Source: Patescibacteria group bacterium (GTDB taxonomy: Bacteria > Patescibacteriota > Microgenomatia > UBA1400 > PJMF01). Taken from it: a stretch of DNA of 64,000 bases. Both the position numbers and the translations under genes were made by a program. Below the pieces are notes generated by a model. The model had not been told where the DNA came from. It saw only the letters and a list, made by a program, of their open reading frames with translations, and made no database searches. Within the stretch, counting starts at the first letter, position 1, and every line of letters starts with the position of its first letter. This document shows positions 389-23,893 of this stretch, piece by piece. The stretch lies in the NCBI GenBank assembly GCA_045541795.1, contig JAZQJV010000018.1, forward strand, positions 118,236 to 182,235, in the 5' to 3' direction.

Positions 389-565
389 GTGGGTAAAGAA
401 TTATCTAGTAATCGCACTGAACACGTAATTTATTTGCTTGACGAGCCAACCACTGGTTTGCATTTTGAGGATGTACAGCGATTGCTTTCGATTTTAAGTT
501 CGCTGGTAGGACAAAACTCCAAGTCATGGACAGGTAAGTTTTTGGTCACTGAATTGGCGCGTTAG
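389..565 (+). pseudogene. uvrA: UvrA C-terminal fragment, roughly a 58-codon remnant
   Basis: Translation ...[37 protein letters not shown]... carries the UvrA-specific [10 protein letters not shown] Walker-B region. The frame is closed by stops on both sides with no upstream part of the gene. Confidence 0.5.
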
Positions 566-834
566 TCGCAGAGAGTAATGTTTAGTTTTTGTGATGAATT
601 ACCCCGACCTTACGGTCGGGGTTATGGACAAATGTGATATGAATTATTTTGAACAATTATGTCTACTCAAAATTATAGTGACTACGCCCAGATTAACCTG
701 ATAACACCTATTGAATATGATCACTATTCAATTAGTTTGTTTAGGTTTTATCAATGTGAAAATTAATAAGTTGCCCAGCACGAGTTTGTTATAATCGGCT
801 TTAGGTTAATAATTTGTCTGGTCACCAGGCATAA

Positions 835-1374
835 GTGCCAACATTATTAACTGGAGGTTATATCACTTTTGCCTGGAAATCCATATGCGACCATCATGAC
901 TATAATCGTATTGATTTGCATGCCTTTAGACTGGACAATAGCTTTACTTATACAGTTTCACTTACAGTCAATTATGACAAGGTTAATCTTTTAGAGAAAC
1001 TGCCAGTCTTACCAAAGTTCGAACAATTATTTATAACTTTCAATCAACCACAAATGCTACTGACCGATACTTTATTGTGGCACGCTGATCGTTGTTACCA
1101 ATTTCAGGGACAAACATTCAATTATGTCCTCATCAGAGCACTGGTAAAAGCCAATGGAGAAATTCCCTGGAACGATCAGCTGCTGCTGATGTATGATCCT
1201 GGTCCTCTTCATCTAAGTAGCTCGAAAATAGATGATAGAAGTACTTTAATTTGTCGTGCTATAGATGACCTTAACTTGGAGCTCAAACAAAAACTTAAAA
1301 TGAATTTTACACCGATACACAGACGTAAAAATAAATTTATTAAATTTGATAAACAAATTATACTATCGACATAG
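835..1374 (+). CDS. Hypothetical protein in the AT-rich region
   Basis: ORF of 179 aa with no recognisable motif. Its low GC matches the surrounding island. Confidence 0.35.
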   Translation: MPTLLTGGYITFAWKSICDHHDYNRIDLHAFRLDNSFTYTVSLTVNYDKVNLLEKLPVLPKFEQLFITFNQPQMLLTDTLLWHADRCYQFQGQTFNYVLIRALVKANGEIPWNDQLLLMYDPGPLHLSSSKIDDRSTLICRAIDDLNLELKQKLKMNFTPIHRRKNKFIKFDKQIILST

Positions 1375-1469
1375 ACTCACTTAGCTGGAGTTACTCTAGG
1401 CTCAGTTTTTGCTTCTCTGGTAGTTTAATATCCCTGTCTAGAAATTAGTCGAGGCTATTAAACGACCGC

Positions 1470-1679
1470 ATGAGACAGAGCACAATAGTAGTACCAGCTC
1501 GCACCGACATCGGGAAAAAATATCGTACTAGCTACGACCCTATATCAGAGCAGGACGTTCACGATTTTATTGCTGCCGTTAAGGCAGATAGTGGATGGGT
1601 ATTGAAGTTTGATGAGGCAAAACAAACAGCCAATGATTTAATAGAGTTGGCCAAATTAGTCAATAAATATCAGGAATAA
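1470..1679 (+). CDS. Hypothetical small protein (69 aa)
   Basis: ORF only. It sits just upstream of the YhcG-like gene. Confidence 0.3.
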   Translation: MRQSTIVVPARTDIGKKYRTSYDPISEQDVHDFIAAVKADSGWVLKFDEAKQTANDLIELAKLVNKYQE

Positions 1680-1735
1680 CTGTCTTAAAAGTCTTGCATT
1701 TTTAATCAATTTGTGATATAAAGACCACATTAATT

Positions 1736-2824
1736 ATGACAAACACAAAAAAGATCCAGACAGTTACTAGTAACGATATGTCGATGTCTAATGATCAAGA
1801 GTATCGGGAATGGTTAGTCGACTTAAAAACAAGATATCAACATAGTCGCATTAAAGCATCTATAAAAATTAATTATGAGGTCATTTTTTATTACTGGTCT
1901 GTTGGTCGTGACATTGTGATTAAAAAAGCCGAATCAAAATGGGGTAGTGGTTTTTATGATAATTTGAGTCGCGATCTACGACGAGAATTACCTGGTATAC
2001 AGGGATTATCAAAAACAAATCTCAAATACATGAAGTACTTTTATGATCTTTTTCCAGATGTGTTTACTGATAAGTCAATTCGTCCACAAGTTGTGGACGA
2101 ATTGGAGCAAATACCTTGGGGACATATCCGATATATTATAGATAAGTGTCGCGGTGATCAACAAAAGGTGATATTTTTCATCAATAAGACCGTGGAAAAC
2201 AACTGGTCGAGAGCAATGCTGCTAAATTTCCTGGATACAGATCTTTACGAGAGGCAAGGGAAGGCGATTACGAATTTTACCAATAAGTTAGCTTCGCCTC
2301 AAGGAGAATTAGCTCAACAGCTTACCAAAGATCCTTACAGTTTTGACTTTCTTACTATGAGAGAAAACTATCAAGAAAAAGAGCTTAAGGATGCCCTGAT
2401 TGCTAATATTGAAAGATTTCTGCTGGAACTTGGCAAAGGTTTTGCTTATATGGGACGGGAATACCGCTTACAAATCGGTGAAACTGAAAAATTTATAGAT
2501 ATGCTCTTTTACAACACTGTCCTGCGTTGTTACGTGGTAGTAGAAGTCAAAGTGGAGAAATTTGAATCCGGACATTTAGGGCAATTGGGATTGTATGTGA
2601 CCGCGGTTAATCATCAGCTCAAAAACGAAACTGACAATCCCACTATCGGTCTGTTGATTTGCAAGAGCAAAGAGAATGTGGTGGCGAAATACTCGCTAGA
2701 AAGCATGGCGGTGCCGATCGGAATATCAGAATATGAGTTGCAAAAAATCTATCCCGCTGATTTCAAGAGTAGTTTGCCAACGATAGAGGAGATAGAGAAT
2801 GAGCTGGCTGATAATAACGATTAG
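1736..2824 (+). CDS. YhcG/DUF1016-family PD-(D/E)xK nuclease-like protein (copy 1)
   Basis: The N-terminal DUF1016-like region (YYWSVGRDIV...KAESKWGSGF...DLSRDL) and the C-terminal PD-ExK motif (FIDMLFYN...CYVVVEVK) are typical of the YhcG family. A paralog lies at 5609-6736. Confidence 0.65.
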   Translation: MTNTKKIQTVTSNDMSMSNDQEYREWLVDLKTRYQHSRIKASIKINYEVIFYYWSVGRDIVIKKAESKWGSGFYDNLSRDLRRELPGIQGLSKTNLKYMKYFYDLFPDVFTDKSIRPQVVDELEQIPWGHIRYIIDKCRGDQQKVIFFINKTVENNWSRAMLLNFLDTDLYERQGKAITNFTNKLASPQGELAQQLTKDPYSFDFLTMRENYQEKELKDALIANIERFLLELGKGFAYMGREYRLQIGETEKFIDMLFYNTVLRCYVVVEVKVEKFESGHLGQLGLYVTAVNHQLKNETDNPTIGLLICKSKENVVAKYSLESMAVPIGISEYELQKIYPADFKSSLPTIEEIENELADNND

Positions 2825-2845
2825 TAAAAATTAAGGTAATAACAT

Positions 2846-4273
2846 ATGTTCACACCTTTTGGCAAGAATCTCGACAATCTAAGTTTTGAAGACATTCAAA
2901 AATTTTGCGATAAAGGTGTTGCTGAAAATATTTATATTGATTACAAGAAAGAAATTAATCAGAAGAATGATCATCTTGCCAAAACTATTGCGTCCTTTGC
3001 TAATACACATGGCGGCTGGATAATAATTGGAGTAGAAGATAAGAATGATCGTCCAAACTCTCCATTTAACGGGATTGACTATACAGATGGAATAGAGTCT
3101 AGTATAACTACTATAATTGTTGACAATATTTATCCATATGTCGAAGTTACATCAAAGGTTATTGTCAACCATGATAATAAAAGAGCTTTTGTTGTAGTGT
3201 ATGTCCCAGAAAGTCATAAAACACCACATTGGATTAACAGCAGAAGGGATCTTTATATTAGAGCTAATACTAGAACAAAAACTGGCAGAGATGATATTAA
3301 GAATAAAAACGAAGACTTGGATATTTACGCCACTTCTGAAAATTGGGAATTCTTAAGAAATAAAAGGGAAAGGTCTCAACAACTGGCAATAGAATTGGAA
3401 ACAGCTTTAAATCGTTTGTTTCTATCATATAAAGATAAAGAAGAACGTTTGTGGTATCAAAATAACGAAAAAGTTAAAAATAATCCGTCGCTGCAAAGTA
3501 TAATATCTGAAGATATGGATACACTCGACTGTGCAGATCCAAGTATCACAACAATTAAAAATAGGCGAGAGTTCAGAAGCGAATGTTATCATGATAACAT
3601 TAGTATTATTGTCCAGCCAGTTTTCCCATCATACGCTATTTCTTCACCGCGTGATTTGAGAGAACACTATTCGTCTAACAGCGGTGCAAACCTCACTAAC
3701 GTTGGTTCACTTGACGAAAACTACAAACTTGATTATTTTCAAAACGGGATAGTAACTTTTTTTACTCCCGACAATAAGACAGGCAACCATTGCGCATTTT
3801 TTGCTCAAGACATCTTTGGTTCGTGCATGGTAAAACACAAGATAGTTCAACACAATCGAAAGAAGATTGATAACTACCAGGGTTATGAAGTGCCGCCAAA
3901 TAGTAACATTATTGACTTTGAATACTTGATAGTTTATATTGAACAATTTTTAAAATATGCATCAGTTTTTTATAAACAAATTGGTTATTTAGGCGAACTT
4001 AGACTTAAGGTGGTCATGAATGTGCCAGAATGGTCATATATGATAATTCATGATTCAACCAAGAATTTTCCGCTTGCATATAGTAATTCTGATAAATATT
4101 TTCTTTGGGAGAAAGTTTTTATTAATGCTGATTTTGTTAACGATCAAGAACGAAATAAAATACTAAATACTATGTATGAAAGTATTGGATTCTTTTTTAA
4201 TTGTGACGAAATTCCTAAACAAATAATTAATAATCTGAGAAAGAATCCAAATAATGCTAATGAGCAACTTTAA
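2846..4273 (+). CDS. AlbA_2 (Schlafen-like, divergent AAA-4) domain protein with an uncharacterised C-terminal region of about 350 aa
   Basis: The N-terminal motif TIASFANTHGGWIIIGVED matches the AlbA_2 DNA-binding domain signature. It lies 21 nt after the YhcG-like gene with an SD (aaggt), so a two-gene operon is likely. Confidence 0.6.
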   Translation: MFTPFGKNLDNLSFEDIQKFCDKGVAENIYIDYKKEINQKNDHLAKTIASFANTHGGWIIIGVEDKNDRPNSPFNGIDYTDGIESSITTIIVDNIYPYVEVTSKVIVNHDNKRAFVVVYVPESHKTPHWINSRRDLYIRANTRTKTGRDDIKNKNEDLDIYATSENWEFLRNKRERSQQLAIELETALNRLFLSYKDKEERLWYQNNEKVKNNPSLQSIISEDMDTLDCADPSITTIKNRREFRSECYHDNISIIVQPVFPSYAISSPRDLREHYSSNSGANLTNVGSLDENYKLDYFQNGIVTFFTPDNKTGNHCAFFAQDIFGSCMVKHKIVQHNRKKIDNYQGYEVPPNSNIIDFEYLIVYIEQFLKYASVFYKQIGYLGELRLKVVMNVPEWSYMIIHDSTKNFPLAYSNSDKYFLWEKVFINADFVNDQERNKILNTMYESIGFFFNCDEIPKQIINNLRKNPNNANEQL

Positions 4274-4299
4274 CTTCCCGTCTCAAAAACTCCCCAATC

Positions 4300-4365
4300 A
4301 TGCTATAATCAACCTCAAGTAACTGGGTTCGGATTTCCCGCCAGAAACCACCAAAAAATAGGATA
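4300..4365. repeat. Direct repeat copy 1: TATAAT box, 15 nt, then conserved 30-mer gggttcggatttcccgccagaaaccacc
   Basis: Aligns over about 65 bp with 6835-6902. The 30-mer (4325-4352) is identical apart from one base. Confidence 0.7.
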
Positions 4366-4423
4366 TTGAAGTACGCAAATTATATCCATATAAAAACGAT
4401 ATTTTAAGCAAATTATTTGGTAT

Positions 4424-5602
4424 TTAATCATTATTGTTAATGTTTAAAAGTAATTGTAATCTTTTCATGATTTCATCGAATGTTATTATTATATTTCTGG
4501 AAACACTCTTTCTGAATAAGTTGAACGATCTTTCTTGTTCTTCAAGAAGTCCTGATTTGTTACCGATAATAATTATTCCTAATGGATCAAGAGCATTCAA
4601 GCGGTTATCTTCATAATCTTTTCCAATAAGAGTTGAAAAATTATCACTCGCAATTCTAATTTGATTTTCTAGTTGAACTATCGCACCACTCAATTCGTCA
4701 GACATGGAATAGCACACATTCTCTCCAACGGCATCTGAATTGCCTCTATATTGATGTCCAATAATGGCACTTTGCGGTGTTTTAATTTCAATAACTGCAA
4801 AGCTTTTATTTGAAAGATTTTGCAAAAGAAAATCAGCGGCGACTCCTCCTTGGCCGTTTCTTCCACGACTGTTCTTTCCTCCTAGATATGTTTCGCCATT
4901 CAAATAACAGACTGGACAATAAAACAAACTCTCAAAAATCCACTGATTTTCTGTGAAGAATGCTTGCCAAAAGTTTTCTTTTTGGTTATTATTCATATTT
5001 TTCGCAATTGTATTAATTGCATTCTGCAATTTGGCTAGTAATATAATATTTTCTAATACTCTGATGTTTCCTTTTCCTAAATCTCTTAACTTGGTAATAA
5101 CCATTTCCTTATTTTTAATATCGCCAATTTGCAATAAAACACTTTCTATATTTCCTTCTCCAATAGATATTGTTGTGGTTCCAAATTTAATACCGTTTTC
5201 ATTTAGAGTCTCTCTAATTAACGGTAAATGCTCAAAGAGATTTTTCATGGCTTCACCATCAAGGTTGAGATCATAAAATTCTCCTTTTCTTAACTTAGTA
5301 ACAGATAGGCCTTTATAACTTTGCCAGTTGTCATTAATTCCTTTTCTTTCCCATCTGAAACCTCCTCGCAATGGTTTGTCAGTTTGAGATGGGTCTACCC
5401 ACTTTGGGTAAAAAAGTAATCTTGTGCTTTCAGTTTCTTTTAGTATAATTGGGGAAATATCAGCGGTTTTATTGGAAGTAGATTTTATTGTTATATCTTT
5501 TGATTCTTTCTGTTTGTCTGTAAATCCCTTGCGAGGTAGCGTGAAATCTATTTCTCCTGAAATATTGCTAAAATCATATTTTGGAGTCATGGTGGCTTTC
5601 AA
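4424..5602 (-). CDS. Shedu-like (DUF4263) PD-(D/E)xK nuclease
   Basis: Of 392 aa. The C-terminal half carries WQAFFTENQWIFESLF, ADFLL and VIEIKTP (a D...ExK motif), and ends in NIIITFDEI, as DUF4263/SduA-type proteins do. It lies 6 nt downstream of YhcG-like copy 2 in the same orientation. Confidence 0.5.
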   Translation of the reverse strand: MKATMTPKYDFSNISGEIDFTLPRKGFTDKQKESKDITIKSTSNKTADISPIILKETESTRLLFYPKWVDPSQTDKPLRGGFRWERKGINDNWQSYKGLSVTKLRKGEFYDLNLDGEAMKNLFEHLPLIRETLNENGIKFGTTTISIGEGNIESVLLQIGDIKNKEMVITKLRDLGKGNIRVLENIILLAKLQNAINTIAKNMNNNQKENFWQAFFTENQWIFESLFYCPVCYLNGETYLGGKNSRGRNGQGGVAADFLLQNLSNKSFAVIEIKTPQSAIIGHQYRGNSDAVGENVCYSMSDELSGAIVQLENQIRIASDNFSTLIGKDYEDNRLNALDPLGIIIIGNKSGLLEEQERSFNLFRKSVSRNIIITFDEIMKRLQLLLNINNND

Positions 5603-5608
5603 TCAAAA

Positions 5609-6736
5609 TTACCTATTTGCTTCTAGCAACTTTTTCTCTATCTCCTCTATCGTCGGCATCGTTCCTTCCACCTTTTGCGGATACAACTTCTCCAGTTCGT
5701 ACTCCGAAATTCCCAATGGTTGATTGCTAGATTCCAAAGCATACTGAGCGATTAAATTATCTTTTTGCTTGCAAATGAGCAAACCGATAGTCGGATTATC
5801 TCGTCCTTCTTTTTGTAAAAGGTGATTGCAAGAAACCACGTAACCGCCAAGTTGCCCCAAATCGGCAAAATCAAATTCGCCAATTTTCACTTCAACCACA
5901 ACGTAACAAGACAACTGTAAATTATAGAAAAGCAAATCAATAAATTTTTCTTTCTCGCCGATTTGCAGTCGATACTCTTTTCCCACATACGCGAAGCCCG
6001 TGCCAAGTTCTAATAAAAATTTGGTTATATTTTCTAGCAGGGCATCTTTTAATTTACGTTCATTGTATTTATCGGTAATACCAGTAAAAGCAAAATTATA
6101 TGGATCTTTTGTTAATTCCTGAGCTAAATCGCTAGTAACATTGGGTAAGGTTTTGCCAAAATTCGTCAATGCTTTTCCTCGTCGATCATAAAGATCGGTT
6201 TCAATAAAATTGAGTAGCATATCTCGGCTCCAACCATTTTCTATTGTTTGGTGAACAAAAAAGAGTGCTTTTTGTGGTTCTGTTTTGAATTTATCAATTA
6301 ACAGCTTATGATGGCCCCACGGAACAGAAAAAATGTCGCTTTCAATTTTCTCAATGACTTGCTGAGTAATTACATTACTTTCTATTTGCTCCCCAACTTG
6401 GGGAGCAATTTCGAAATATTGATGGTAAAGTATATAAAAGTTTTTCATGTACAACAAATTTGTCGGCGAAAAACACGTTGCGTCAGGATTGAGAGTTTTA
6501 AGGTCTCGGCTGAGATTTTTCATGAAACCACTGCTCCATTTACTTTCGGCTTTCATTACCACAATGTCTCTGCCCAAATCATAGTAAAAACGAAGCATTT
6601 CCCGATTAACTTTTACTGCTGCTCTAACTTGGCTCAAGCGATAACGAGAAGAAAGCTTCCCAATCCACGAGGCATAATTTTCATCTAGAATTGTTAGTGA
6701 CTGAACTTGTTTTGCAACCTGTTTTTTCTCTGTCAT
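5609..6736 (-). CDS. YhcG/DUF1016-family PD-(D/E)xK nuclease-like protein (copy 2)
   Basis: Clearly paralogous to 1736-2824 (RFYYDLGRDIVVMKAESKWSSGF; FIDLLFYN...CYVVVEVK). It is the first gene of the minus-strand two-gene operon. Confidence 0.65.
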   Translation of the reverse strand: MTEKKQVAKQVQSLTILDENYASWIGKLSSRYRLSQVRAAVKVNREMLRFYYDLGRDIVVMKAESKWSSGFMKNLSRDLKTLNPDATCFSPTNLLYMKNFYILYHQYFEIAPQVGEQIESNVITQQVIEKIESDIFSVPWGHHKLLIDKFKTEPQKALFFVHQTIENGWSRDMLLNFIETDLYDRRGKALTNFGKTLPNVTSDLAQELTKDPYNFAFTGITDKYNERKLKDALLENITKFLLELGTGFAYVGKEYRLQIGEKEKFIDLLFYNLQLSCYVVVEVKIGEFDFADLGQLGGYVVSCNHLLQKEGRDNPTIGLLICKQKDNLIAQYALESSNQPLGISEYELEKLYPQKVEGTMPTIEEIEKKLLEANR

Positions 6737-6834
6737 AGTGGCTATTACTTATAGCACAATAACGCTATTTTGTCAATACTGATAATTAATTATTATTGGC
6801 ATTTATTTTCAATTCTTGCAAAAACAACTTCATA

Positions 6835-6902
6835 CTGTTATAATCAGTTTCAAATAATTGGGTGCGGATTTCCCGCCAGAAACCACCCCAAAAAGATGGG
6901 AT
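6835..6902. repeat. Direct repeat copy 2: TATAAT box, 15 nt, then conserved 30-mer (6860-6887)
   Basis: Same spacing and sequence as copy 1. Here it serves as promoter and leader of the zinc-ribbon/TM2 gene. Confidence 0.7.
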
Positions 6903-6922
6903 TACTGCGATGAAAGTGAAAC

Positions 6923-7256
6923 ATGACAGATGAAAAAACAAAATACTGTAAACATTGCGGTTCGCTTATTGATGTAGAATTGCATAATATGCCCGAAGTG
7001 TGGCAAGCAGGTCGAACAAGTAAAAGCCGAGCTTCCAAATGTAGTGATCAATAACAATAACACCAATTCGAATATAAACTATGCTGGTGCTGTGGGGAGC
7101 GGGCGGCCTATCAATAAGTGGATAGCTTTGGGTTTATGTCTTTTTCTGGGCATATTCGGTGCTCATAAGTTTTATGAAGGAAAGATTGGCATGGGAATAT
7201 TGTATTTGTTTACATTTGGTTTGTTTAGTCTTGGTTGGTTTTTAGATATTTTTTAA
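6923..7256 (+). pseudogene. Zinc-ribbon plus TM2-domain membrane protein split by an apparent +1 frameshift
   Basis: Frame A reads MTDEKTKYCKHCGSLIDVELHN.... The TM2 frame reads ...CPKCGKQVEQVKAELPNVV then INNNN...GAHKFYEGKIGMGILYLF (TM2 domain). The two CxxC halves of one zinc ribbon sit in different frames around position 6989. Confidence 0.5.
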
Positions 7257-7355
7257 TCCTAACAAAGCCTAATCCTTATTACATATAATACTTTTACATT
7301 TGCGTTTTTATTATAACTACGTTATAATAACACAAACTTTAAGGAAAATATAAAC

Positions 7356-8429
7356 ATGAAAAATCATCGAAAATTCCATCCTCGCATTATTGTCAATATC
7401 ATCTGTCTTTTTTCATTGGCATTATCTCACATTATTTTTTCGCTACCGATTAAAATAATTGATACAGTTTATGCCGTCGAGCGTGAAACTGTCACTGTGA
7501 GCCGTGTGATTGATGGTGATACAATCGTTTTGAATGATGGGCGAAAGGTTAGATATATTGGAATTGATACACCAGAAACAGTTCATCCAACAAAAAATGT
7601 GCAGTGTTTTGGGAAACAAGCCAGTAACAAAAATAGAGAATTAGTCCTTGGTAAAACTGTGGAACTGGAAAAAGATATCAGTGAAACTGATCGCTATGGA
7701 CGTTTACTCAGATATGTATATTTGGATGGCGTCATGATTAATCATAAATTAGTCGCTGAAGGTTATGCCACAACCGTAACCTATCCTCCAGATGTTAAGT
7801 ATAAAGAAGAATTCTCCAAAGCTCAGGCGCAGGCAAGACAAGCAAGACTTGGGCTATGGGGTAATGAATGCAACGAAAGCAGCAGCACTCACGCATCCTC
7901 AAACAACAATGCTAGCTCAAATACAAATAAAATGGATTCGTCAAGCACATCGTCATCATCTCAAAACAACAAAACTCAAAATGACCATGAAGGCAACCAA
8001 GCTTCTACTCAACCAACTAACACTAGCGCACAAAAATGTCCATCAAATTGTAGTGAGGCCAAAAGCATGGGAATGGTTAACATTACACCGTCGCATCCAT
8101 GCTGGCAAGAAAAATTTGATGGCGATAAAGATGGCGTGGGTTGTGAAAGTGACAACCGGTCTACCAATACAAAAACAACTAACAAATCCAATAATGTCAA
8201 TAAACAGACCAGTGCTACGCCGGCACCCACGCCAGTGCCAAGTCGCGCCCCAACGCCAGAACCAACCCCACCGCCTACGTCAGTGCCAGCTCCAGCTGCG
8301 CCAACCCAATCTTGTCCAAATAACTGTACCCAAGCAAAGGCAATGGGAATGGCCAATATGACACCTTCTCATCCTTGTTGGCAATCTAAATTTGACCGAG
8401 ATAAAGACGGTATTGGTTGCGAAGACTAG
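7356..8429 (+). CDS. Secreted thermonuclease (SNase-like) with two C-terminal Excalibur calcium-binding domains
   Basis: SNase motifs are RYIGIDTPE and DRYGRLLRYVY. Two repeats of C..C...MG..N.TPSHPCW..KFD.DKDG.GCE follow. An N-terminal TM or signal segment is present. Confidence 0.75.
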   Translation: MKNHRKFHPRIIVNIICLFSLALSHIIFSLPIKIIDTVYAVERETVTVSRVIDGDTIVLNDGRKVRYIGIDTPETVHPTKNVQCFGKQASNKNRELVLGKTVELEKDISETDRYGRLLRYVYLDGVMINHKLVAEGYATTVTYPPDVKYKEEFSKAQAQARQARLGLWGNECNESSSTHASSNNNASSNTNKMDSSSTSSSSQNNKTQNDHEGNQASTQPTNTSAQKCPSNCSEAKSMGMVNITPSHPCWQEKFDGDKDGVGCESDNRSTNTKTTNKSNNVNKQTSATPAPTPVPSRAPTPEPTPPPTSVPAPAAPTQSCPNNCTQAKAMGMANMTPSHPCWQSKFDRDKDGIGCED

Positions 8430-8438
8430 AAAGTAAAA

Positions 8439-9119
8439 ATGTCACAAAAAGATAATAGCAAACATTCTTGCAGAATAATCATGGCCGCATTGCTAGTGCT
8501 TCTAAGCATTGCATTGCTGCATAAATCTTTTTTTGCTGCCGCCTTCACTATCTGCTACGCATATCTCATCTCGCCACTATCAATTCAATTGGTAAGTAAA
8601 ATATGTAAGAAAGAAAATGAGAAATGGCTATATTCAACCATGACTTTTATTTTTGCTCTTTGCTGGATGACCACAATTCAAACTGGTCAGCCACAAATGG
8701 ATAATGTGTTAACGCAAAATAGTGAAAAAAACGCATCGCTAGAGAATGCGTCAACACAAAATAATGAAAAAATCGCTTCACTAGAAAAAGAGCTCCAATC
8801 AGTTAAGAACGAAAGAGATGAAATTCAAGCAAACAACCAAAAAAGAGCCATTTCAGCTGCCAAATCATATTTGGAATACAGTCCAATGTCGAGCCGAGAG
8901 TTGATTAAGCAACTCGAGTTAGAAGAATTTTCTCATGAAGACGCAGCATACGGTGTAGAGCATGCTGATATCAATTGGAACGATCAAGCATCACGGTCAG
9001 CAGTCCTCTTTATTGAGTTTGCTAATCCGTCAACCGAAGAATTAAAAAAACAACTTGAGTACGAAGGTTTCACAAGCAACGAAATAAAATTCGCCATTGA
9101 GCATAATAGTAATGGGTAA
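8439..9119 (+). CDS. Membrane-anchored protein with two C-terminal Ltp-type repeats (phage superinfection-exclusion lipoprotein family)
   Basis: The repeats AKSYLEYSPMSSRELIKQLELEEFSHEDAAYGV and ...STEELKKQLEYEGFTSNEIKFAIEH match the Ltp repeat pattern (YL..S...LI.QLEYEGF...A.YAV). An N-terminal TM segment and a coiled-coil repeat region are present. Confidence 0.55.
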   Translation: MSQKDNSKHSCRIIMAALLVLLSIALLHKSFFAAAFTICYAYLISPLSIQLVSKICKKENEKWLYSTMTFIFALCWMTTIQTGQPQMDNVLTQNSEKNASLENASTQNNEKIASLEKELQSVKNERDEIQANNQKRAISAAKSYLEYSPMSSRELIKQLELEEFSHEDAAYGVEHADINWNDQASRSAVLFIEFANPSTEELKKQLEYEGFTSNEIKFAIEHNSNG

Positions 9120-9148
9120 ATGACTCTATTGCTTCCAGTAAGGAAAGT

Positions 9149-9490
9149 ATGCCATCTACCAAAAGTTACCTTAATCACCTTCTAACTCAATTCTCGCAGT
9201 TGGATGATATTTCTTACCGCTCGATGATGGGGGAGTATATCATTTATTTCAAAGGCAAAGTAGTAGGTGGAATTTATGATGATCGATTTTTGGTCAAGAC
9301 AACAAAATCTGCACTCGCGTTGATGCCAAACACAAGCAAAGAATTACCATATCCCGGTGCGAAAGAAATGTTGTTGGTAGACGATACGGGAGACAAAGTA
9401 TTTTTACGCGAGCTGCTGACCGCGATATATGAGGAGCTGTCAGTGGTAAAGAAAAAAGAAAGCACATTAAAACGTTTATTAACGAATTGA
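9149..9490 (+). CDS. TfoX N-terminal domain protein
   Basis: MMGEYIIYFKGKVVGGIYDDRFLVK matches the TfoX_N motif (MFGGYGLY..G..FALV.DD.LYLK). Confidence 0.55.
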   Translation: MPSTKSYLNHLLTQFSQLDDISYRSMMGEYIIYFKGKVVGGIYDDRFLVKTTKSALALMPNTSKELPYPGAKEMLLVDDTGDKVFLRELLTAIYEELSVVKKKESTLKRLLTN

Positions 9491-9502
9491 CATTCATTGT
9501 CC

Positions 9503-10204
9503 TCATCTTTGACGTCTCGCTCTCTCCATATACTCTCTTTGCACCCGCATAAATAATTCCTTATCTGCCAAAAGCGTCCGGATCTCATTTAAAAAACGCT
9601 CGTACTCCGGATCAGAAAAAAAGTATTTCGCATAGCCGCCCTCACCAAATTTTTCTTTCAGGTGTTGCCAACTTCTCACAAACAATTGCTCGTCACTAAA
9701 ATCCGGATGTAAATTTTTACCATACACAAAACTTCGATACAAACAATCTTCTACGCTCGTATTTCTGTCCGCCGTGGACACAATTTTCCCGTACACGCTC
9801 CGGGGCTCGTGATTGCTTGAAGCACGATGATCTTCGATTGCCTCTTTAATCAGTTTTAATTGTTTACCGCTAAAAAAATCAGGCAAATGCTTATCCTCAC
9901 TCATCATCCGCGCAGAAATAATCTCATGCTTGGCTGGATCAATGTGATGTCCCAGATCATGATAAGCAGCCACAGTGTAGACAATGTCTAAGTTAACGTC
10001 GGTCAGTTTTTGCGCCAAGTTAATACTTCTTTCAATGACATATTTAATGTGTTTTAAATTATGAGCTGGCTCATTTTGAGCGTACTGCGGGAAAACATTT
10101 TGCTGGATGTATGTTTGTAATTTTCTATTGACGGTAGGATAAAAATTATTTTCTAACATAAACATTACTATATTATAACACGAGCAGACATTTTGAAAGC
10201 TCAA
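9503..10204 (-). CDS. HD-domain phosphohydrolase
   Basis: HD motif (TVAAYHDLGHH). Confidence 0.6.
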   Translation of the reverse strand: MSFQNVCSCYNIVMFMLENNFYPTVNRKLQTYIQQNVFPQYAQNEPAHNLKHIKYVIERSINLAQKLTDVNLDIVYTVAAYHDLGHHIDPAKHEIISARMMSEDKHLPDFFSGKQLKLIKEAIEDHRASSNHEPRSVYGKIVSTADRNTSVEDCLYRSFVYGKNLHPDFSDEQLFVRSWQHLKEKFGEGGYAKYFFSDPEYERFLNEIRTLLADKELFMRVQREYMERARRQR

Positions 10205-10269: not shown

Positions 10270-10695
10270 ATGCAAAAATCAAATAATCTTATTTCAATTA
10301 TTTTGTGTGTGATCGCGGTGGTGAGTCTCGCTCTCAATGTCTACTGTGTCAATCAAAAACACACTCAGCCGGCGCCATCAAGTCAACTTGCCGAGGCACA
10401 GGCGGCCTACAAACTTTACATCGTCATCCCAGATAGTGTCACTGATACAGATAATTACATCCGTGAGCTGGAAACAATACTTGCCAATCGTGTCCCCGGC
10501 TACACGATGTATCCCACTCGTGGCGGCTCGCATGAAGACGACGGCAGCATGAGTTATCAGACCACTTTGGTCTGCGAGCTTTACGGCACTGATAAACAAA
10601 CTGTCACCCAAATTGCCCATCAAGTGATGACCAGTTTTAATGTGAACAGTGTGCCGGTGGCAACTCTTAGTTCACAGTGGGAAATAATTCGTTGA
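10270..10695 (+). CDS. Hypothetical secreted or membrane-anchored protein
   Basis: N-terminal hydrophobic segment. A TGnTATAAT box ends 6 nt before the ATG, so the mRNA looks leaderless. Confidence 0.4.
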   Translation: MQKSNNLISIILCVIAVVSLALNVYCVNQKHTQPAPSSQLAEAQAAYKLYIVIPDSVTDTDNYIRELETILANRVPGYTMYPTRGGSHEDDGSMSYQTTLVCELYGTDKQTVTQIAHQVMTSFNVNSVPVATLSSQWEIIR

Positions 10696-23816: not shown

Positions 23817-23893
23817 TGGTGACTCCAGAGGGATTCGAACCCTCGATCTTTTGGATGAAAACCAAATATCCTGGACCGCTAGACGATGGAGCC
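23817..23893 (-). tRNA. tRNA-Glu(UUC), CCA encoded
   Basis: The reverse complement reads GGCTCCATCGTCTAGCGGTCCAGGAT..TTTGG-TTTTCAT-CCAAA..GAGGGTTCGAATCCCTCTGGAGTCACCA. It has a 7-bp acceptor stem with one G-U pair, a TCGTCTAG D-arm typical of tRNA-Glu, anticodon TTC and a GGTTCGAATCC T-arm. Confidence 0.85.

Follow-up and report, generated by a model that had tools for sequence, protein, structure and literature searches.

A reading frame that resembles the Shedu nuclease SduA lies directly behind a gene of the YhcG family in the 64,000-nt stretch of DNA analysed here (the window), and this arrangement raises the question of whether the two genes form a new two-gene YhcG-Shedu system or whether an ordinary Shedu gene happens to share its surroundings with another nuclease gene. 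The evidence set out below makes the second reading very probable, namely that a canonical Type 1A SduA is encoded beside yhcG2, an independent single-gene nuclease, in a variable low-GC defence island (Table 1).

The product of this frame is a genuine Shedu nuclease and an ordinary member of its family. The earlier note had assigned it to DUF4263 (SduA) and had proposed a profile search as a check, with the lack of a DUF4263 match as the outcome that would speak against the assignment. The SduA_C profile (PF14082, formerly DUF4263) matches with an E-value of 9.2e-22 and 78.3 bits, against a cut-off of 27 bits, and over profile positions 2-158 of 159, and the profiles, the sequence matches, the motifs and the fold all bear out the assignment. 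The SduA_N profile (PF21407) matches over positions 1-101 of 102 (E 7.4e-12), both Pfam matches being well over their gathering scores, and 15 SduA models of PADLOC match the same protein, the best of them with E 1.3e-68. A search of NCBIfam returned no match for SduA, YhcG2, the AlbA_2 protein or two small ORFs, and the absence of such a match for SduA has to be listed against the preferred reading. In a sequence search of the PDB, the only real matches were the B. cereus Shedu 8TI8 and the nuclease-domain constructs 8TI9 and 8TIA. The match to 8TI8 (E 1.1e-36) is full-length and covers both domains, residues 34-156 of SduA being aligned to 4-127 of that chain (i-Evalue 1.6e-10) and residues 158-387 to 155-378, which belong to the nuclease domain.

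All four PD-(D/E)xK motifs (E, D, ExK and Q) are intact in SduA. Their counterparts in the B. cereus protein are given in Table 1 with the numbering of Gu et al., the matching of residues allowing for a two-residue offset of the deposited 8TI8 chain. Among 48 aligned relatives of SduA, four of these residues (E209, D257, K274, Q310) never vary, and E272 is conserved in 90% or more. The three stretches that had been singled out as characteristic of the family, WQ.FF..N.W, an ADFLL...VIEIKTP D/ExK core and NIIITFDEI, are all present; residues 211-221 read FWQAFFTENQW, residues 255-276 read AADFLLQNLSNKSFAVIEIKTP (AADFLL...FAVIEIKTP) and residues 370-378 read NIIITFDEI.

The predicted fold points in the same direction. 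An AlphaFold2 (AF2) model built on the alignment of the 48 relatives has a mean pLDDT of 79.9, reaching 90 or more at 185 residues, and shows residues 1-32 and 150-160 as disordered. The N-terminal domain is modelled with a pLDDT of 84-96 over residues 41-140, as a beta-sheet accompanied by a helix at 116-136. When the model was used as a query in Foldseek, all eight PDB matches at E <= 0.001 were Shedu proteins (8TI9, 8TI8 and 8PS4), and the TM-score against the 8TI9 nuclease domain, normalised to the target, was 0.79-0.80. The structural comparison with a solved SduA, also proposed as a check, is thus favourable as far as a model can tell, the significant PDB matches being Shedu structures only. 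Moreover, SduA carries the N-terminal domain of the B. cereus kind (PF21407) by which Type 1A is recognised in the classification of Gu et al., and judged by its sequence it is a Type 1A protein. This class is the largest among the Shedu proteins, with 1,684 of 7,687 members, and the N-terminal domain of B. cereus Shedu has been described as sPC4/Whirly-like (Gu et al., bioRxiv 10.1101/2023.08.10.552793). As a separate observation on the family, some distant relatives of SduA (P0061, P0063, P0068, P0083 and P0085) have an acidic C-terminal tail that ends in (D/E/L)(L/M/P)PF (DDLPF, DEPPF, NDMPF) and is reminiscent of a docking motif; the SduA of the window has no such tail.

Table 1. Position of the sduA locus and of its flanking features in the window.
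Feature	Position	Strand	Evidence or remark
yhcG1, second YhcG paralogue	1736..2824	+	Pfam, PADLOC; convergent with the sduA cassette
Schlafen/AlbA_2-domain protein, 475 aa	2846..4273	+	PF04326, E 6.9e-17; 21 nt after yhcG1
Left copy of ~70-nt promoter-like direct repeat	4285..4352	+	Between AlbA_2 gene and 3' end of sduA; nhmmer E 2.6e-20
sduA, Shedu immune nuclease, Type 1A by sequence	4424..5602	-	ORF, Pfam, PADLOC, 8TI8 match, AF2, Foldseek
SduA C-terminal DUF4263 PD-(D/E)xK nuclease domain, residues 207-378	4469..4984	-	PF14082
SduA motif IV, Q310	4673-4675	-	Counterpart of B. cereus Q295
SduA motif III, E272 and K274	4781-4789	-	Counterpart of B. cereus E264/K266
SduA motif II, D257	4832-4834	-	Counterpart of B. 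cereus D249
SduA motif I, E209	4976-4978	-	Counterpart of B. cereus E204
SduA N-terminal regulatory domain, residues 41-140	5183..5482	-	PF21407, 8TI8 alignment, AF2
yhcG2, YhcG/DUF1016-family PD-(D/E)xK nuclease	5609..6736	-	Pfam, PADLOC; directly upstream of sduA
Right copy of ~70-nt promoter-like direct repeat	6819..6887	+	Upstream of yhcG2, directly before zinc-ribbon/TM2 gene

The sduA reading frame is unbroken and would give a protein of 392 aa from a TTG start at 5602 or one of 388 aa from an in-frame ATG at 5590, the shorter form being 100% identical to a protein in an NCBI record. Since the frame holds no other ATG, GTG or TTG before residue 40, the start of sduA is one of these two codons. 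Residues 1-32, which are predicted to be disordered, form an extension that has no counterpart in the relatives, and this 32-residue extension has to be listed against the preferred reading. The GC content of the gene is 32.7%, against a mean of 48.0% (sd 2.7, minimum 41.6%) for windows of 1179 nt outside the island, so that the low-GC setting pointed out in the earlier note is real; the island itself (467-10204, ~10 kb) has a GC content of 36.4%. Two observations concern the host rather than the nuclease. Many genes have a TATAAT-like box, in many cases with a TG ahead of it, 6-14 nt before the start codon (for example those starting at 10270, 28881, 33513, 45726, 47420, 53917, 1736 and 6736), and only 14 of the 48 long ORFs of the window have a Shine-Dalgarno-like motif, which together suggest that leaderless mRNAs are widespread in this organism. 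In addition, the closest relatives of the LepA encoded in the window have 85-90% identity to it, and the LepA proteins of Microgenomates and Patescibacteria 64-65%.

The YhcG-family gene reported upstream of sduA is equally real. The product of yhcG2 matches PF06250 (E 7.5e-57) and PF17761 (E 1.6e-29), so that DUF1016_N and YhcG_C are both present and the protein is full-length, and it also matches PDC-S02 of PADLOC (PDLC04810; E 5.3e-150), which in that collection is a single-gene defence candidate. We regard the yhcG2 product as an independent PD-(D/E)xK nuclease, a separate single-gene defence candidate and not a Shedu subunit. A distant homology between SduA and YhcG was also considered and rejected, since hhalign of the two profiles gave a probability of 0.4%, which is not significant, with only the D...ExK core lining up.

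The stop codon of yhcG2 (TAA, 5609-5611) lies 6 nt ahead of the TTG of sduA and 18 nt ahead of its ATG. The two genes had been described as translationally coupled, and of this description the adjacency stands, the reading frames do not overlap, and coupling is a plausible reading of the spacing. The sole suitably placed Shine-Dalgarno candidate before the TTG, and a weak one, is AGG, the last sense codon of yhcG2. A scan of 4200-7100 revealed no terminator-like sites, including between the two genes, and 14 promoters where 10.5 were expected from shuffles, that is, no enrichment. Given the gap of 6 or 18 nt, and as sduA has neither a strong ribosome-binding site nor its own promoter, its expression would depend on the transcription of yhcG2; the two genes are likely co-transcribed, the yhcG2 promoter being the most likely source of the sduA transcript. 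Such a dependence is equally expected of a true two-gene system and, to that extent, counts against the reading of the two genes as independent neighbours.

A functional two-component defence made up of YhcG2 and SduA would be an analogue of KELShedu, in which YhcG could have a sensing or regulatory role or contribute a further nuclease; the neighbouring yhcG1-AlbA_2 pair could then be another form of this defence, with another effector. This proposal is consistent with the location of yhcG2 and sduA on one strand with a gap of 6-18 nt, with the lack of terminator-like sites between them, with the lack of a convincing separate promoter or Shine-Dalgarno motif for sduA and with the precedent that KELShedu provides for a two-gene Shedu (PMC12577705). 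It also draws on the mirrored yhcG1-AlbA_2 bicistron, which has a gap of 21 nt and is kept as a unit in the JGI contig L043; having the same 'YhcG first' layout, this pair counts against an independent role for each gene of the cassette. However, L043 belongs to the same lineage, with 94% DNA identity, and therefore its yhcG1-AlbA_2 unit is not independent evidence. The census of relatives is opposed to a conserved partnership. This census covered 50 SduA loci, 510 kb in all, which were taken from metagenome assemblies, genomes of GTDB and a single viral contig, and 96 YhcG loci, 80 of them metagenomic with 66-81% identity to YhcG2 and the remaining 16 viral contigs. With phmmer on the called ORFs and tblastn on the DNA, YhcG homologues were found in 0 of the 50 SduA loci and SduA in 0 of the 96 YhcG loci, and the scans of viral contigs yielded one distant SduA locus and no close relatives of YhcG1. 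Elsewhere, YhcG stands alone or in R-M operons with unrelated genes downstream; in the relatives of YhcG2 outside R-M operons, the tightly spaced downstream genes encode an M28 peptidase, a TPR protein or MnmG (housekeeping). Moreover, SduA has a complete N-terminal regulatory domain of its own and would thus not need a separate sensor, whereas in KELShedu the N-terminal region of KELB is short and binds the 12.6-kDa partner. Among the loci examined, the yhcG2-sduA pairing occurs in this lineage alone, and the YhcG-SduA association is not conserved. The earlier note had set this Shedu apart from the canonical stand-alone kind because of its coupling to YhcG, a distinction that, at 0 of 50 and 0 of 96 loci, finds no support as a feature of the system; the adjacency looks like a one-off juxtaposition and not like a new two-gene system, and a two-component defence at this locus is improbable.

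The island around this pair is variable. The contig L043 matches the window over 1694-4345 with 94% DNA identity and keeps the yhcG1-AlbA_2 unit (67-2673 in L043), but past the repeat listed in Table 1 it carries different cargo, with MazG-like, GIY-YIG and SLFN-g3 helicase genes in place of sduA-yhcG2 and, further on, a TfoX_N gene with 71% identity to the window copy at 9149-9490. YhcG1 is 53% identical to YhcG2 (BLASTP), and PADLOC gave no match for the Schlafen/AlbA_2 protein. Other features of the island were recorded in passing. At its edge, a short ORF with a UvrA-like ABC signature (389-565) lies in a frame-disrupted region that looks like the remnant of a uvrA-type gene, and the segment 467-1693, whose ORFs (179 aa and 69 aa) match no family, is absent from L043. 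On the other side of the cassette, the zinc-ribbon/TM2 gene (6923-7256) is apparently frameshifted, with MTDEKTKYCKHCGSLIDVE... in one frame and ...CIICPKCGKQVEQ... in another that continues into the TM2 ORF (7044-7256); the split reflects either a pseudogene or an error in the assembly. The low-GC island also encodes a staphylococcal-nuclease protein that is secreted and has two Excalibur domains (7356-8429; PADLOC C3a212, SNc+LTD, E 3e-39), which is followed by a gene for a protein with Ltp-like lipoprotein repeats (8439-9119).

The two copies of the ~70-nt repeat exactly bracket the yhcG2-sduA cassette. Their right halves share a 22-nt identical core, where 0 are expected by chance, and their left halves differ. 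The repeat has an extended -10 box, TGnTATAAT, with the conserved segment CAACCTCAAG...TGGGTTCGGATTTCCCGCCAGA downstream of it, and the right copy contains TTGCAA-17-TATAAT with a TG extension, within a promoter-like site at 6816-6844. Three copies lie at the cargo junctions of L043 (2684-2752, 5400-5469 and 8974-9041), and the 94% homology between the window and L043 stops inside the left copy, at 4345. These positions could be read as those of a cassette-exchange hotspot, at which recombination within the repeat would exchange defence modules, including 'YhcG-first' bicistrons of type I R-M passengers, in a Patescibacteria-like bacterium with a small genome, with YhcG perhaps serving as a reusable partner of SduA or AlbA_2. 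We consider this reading unlikely. Beyond the window and L043, the repeat was found in none of the other collected loci. Two further identities of the repeat were rejected. As an RNA, it has no Rfam family, and its consensus folds at -2.3 kcal/mol without compensatory pairs; as the 3' end of a tRNA or an att site, it ends in GCCAGAAACCA but the matching acceptor 5' strand is absent, the only tRNA found by ARAGORN being a tRNA-Glu at 23817-23893. Likewise, a 32-nt inverted repeat (2775-2806/5627-5658) was rejected as a recombination signal, as it corresponds to the C-terminal coding sequence MPTIEEIE of both yhcG genes.

The relatives of both proteins are found for the most part in type I R-M operons. 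The closest relatives of SduA (44-54% identity, ~350 aa, with the domains of the SduA described here) were found in metagenomes, freshwater ones among them, and in metagenome-assembled genomes of Saccharibacteria, Parcubacteria and Peregrinibacteria, and nearly all of their informative loci are hsdM-...-sduA-hsdS-hsdR operons, in which sduA directly precedes hsdS and the stop and start codons usually overlap. The relatives of YhcG2 (66-81% identity) are mostly located in an hsdM-yhcG-hsdS slot. Both SduA and YhcG2 belong to lineages that are usually passengers between hsdM and hsdS, and thus the yhcG2-sduA pair probably arrived as, or was assembled from, R-M passenger genes without the R-M genes themselves. 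Searches with HMMs made from the proteins of the relatives detected no hsdM, hsdS or hsdR among the ORFs of at least 60 aa in the 64-kb window, and the flanking hsd genes that mark an R-M-embedded Shedu are accordingly lacking around sduA. Since 602 of 5,499 Shedu genes have been counted inside R-M systems, type I included (Gu et al., bioRxiv 10.1101/2023.08.10.552793), the occurrence of Shedu genes in type I R-M operons was already known. As an observation on the slot itself, the interval between hsdM and hsdS in CPR and freshwater genomes (L001, L044, L045, L131 and others) holds changing passengers, among them Fic, RhuM, DUF3800, DUF4145, Bro-N and unknown proteins.

If the SduA clade functionally needs a type I R-M partner, sduA could be orphaned here, a point that also counts against the preferred reading. 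The cassette would then be a leftover block of type I R-M passengers, with an R-M-dependent or R-M-complementing SduA that acts, for example, on DNA ends made by HsdR and that now has a reduced function or none. Although the place of the closest SduA relatives directly upstream of hsdS, the similar place of the YhcG2 relatives and the lack of detectable hsd genes across the window would agree with such a history, we hold it to be quite improbable, as the sduA and yhcG2 ORFs are intact with all catalytic residues kept, B. cereus Shedu, which is also of Type 1A, confers protection on its own (Gu et al.), an R-M system could be encoded elsewhere in the 288-kb contig or in the rest of the genome, and R-M embedding is common for unrelated passengers (Fic, RhuM, DUF3800, DUF4145, Bro-N) in the same slots.

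With a canonical Type 1A SduA beside an independent YhcG2 as the preferred reading, a mechanism can be proposed by analogy with the known enzyme. By homology with B. cereus Shedu, SduA would assemble as a homotetramer through its DUF4263 PD-(D/E)xK domain, and its N-terminal domain would hold the enzyme inactive by keeping the motif II aspartate at a distance from the active site. This N-terminal domain might sense a signal linked to infection, which may be nucleic acid in single-stranded or some other abnormal form; the inhibition of SduA would then be released and phage DNA would be cut, giving SduA a putative anti-phage function. The locus adds one more Type 1A gene to a Shedu family of several thousand, in this case from an uncultured lineage that is probably related to Patescibacteria, and the idea of a new two-gene system made up of YhcG and Shedu can be dropped. 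It indicates that passengers of type I R-M systems, from the SduA clade and from the YhcG2 clade, can co-occur without R-M genes and that the cargo junctions of the island carry a promoter-like repeat specific to this lineage, and it leaves the current understanding of Shedu unchanged.

Among known systems, the YhcG/DUF1016 family (PDC-S02) accounts for yhcG2, which encodes a full-length member of that family and is not part of Shedu. KELShedu resembles the locus in that a DUF4263 nuclease gene lies a few bases from a second gene in a bicistron. However, its partner KELA is a 12.6-kDa dsDNA-binding protein and the neighbour here is a 375-aa YhcG nuclease, and KELB, unlike this SduA, has a short N-terminal region that binds KELA and no large sensor domain (PMC12577705); the conserved partnership typical of KELShedu is not seen for yhcG2-sduA, which co-occur in none of the other loci examined. 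The R-M-embedded Shedu proteins are the closest relatives in sequence, but their genes lie between hsdM and hsdS, whereas the window has no hsd genes and a yhcG gene upstream instead. The SduA of E. coli (8PS4), a DNA-nicking enzyme that recognises DNA ends (Loeff et al.), has the DUF4263 nuclease core in common with the SduA described here (Foldseek E 1.5e-9), but its N-terminal clamp is an unrelated domain and there is no match at the sequence level; thus, the end-sensing mechanism would not be simply transferable to this protein.

The nearest counterpart with a solved structure is the Shedu of B. cereus B4264 (8TI8, 8TI9, 8TIA). Differences between the two include the extra N-terminal extension of ~32 disordered residues, the position of sduA 6-18 nt behind a YhcG gene, whereas B. 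cereus Shedu is monocistronic, the uncultured Patescibacteria-like host and an identity of only ~25-30%. Nevertheless, both proteins have a similar length and the same order of SduA_N, helical linker and DUF4263, they can be aligned from end to end, and the predicted fold of the protein described here matches that of B. cereus Shedu with TM-scores of 0.64-0.80, normalised to the target.
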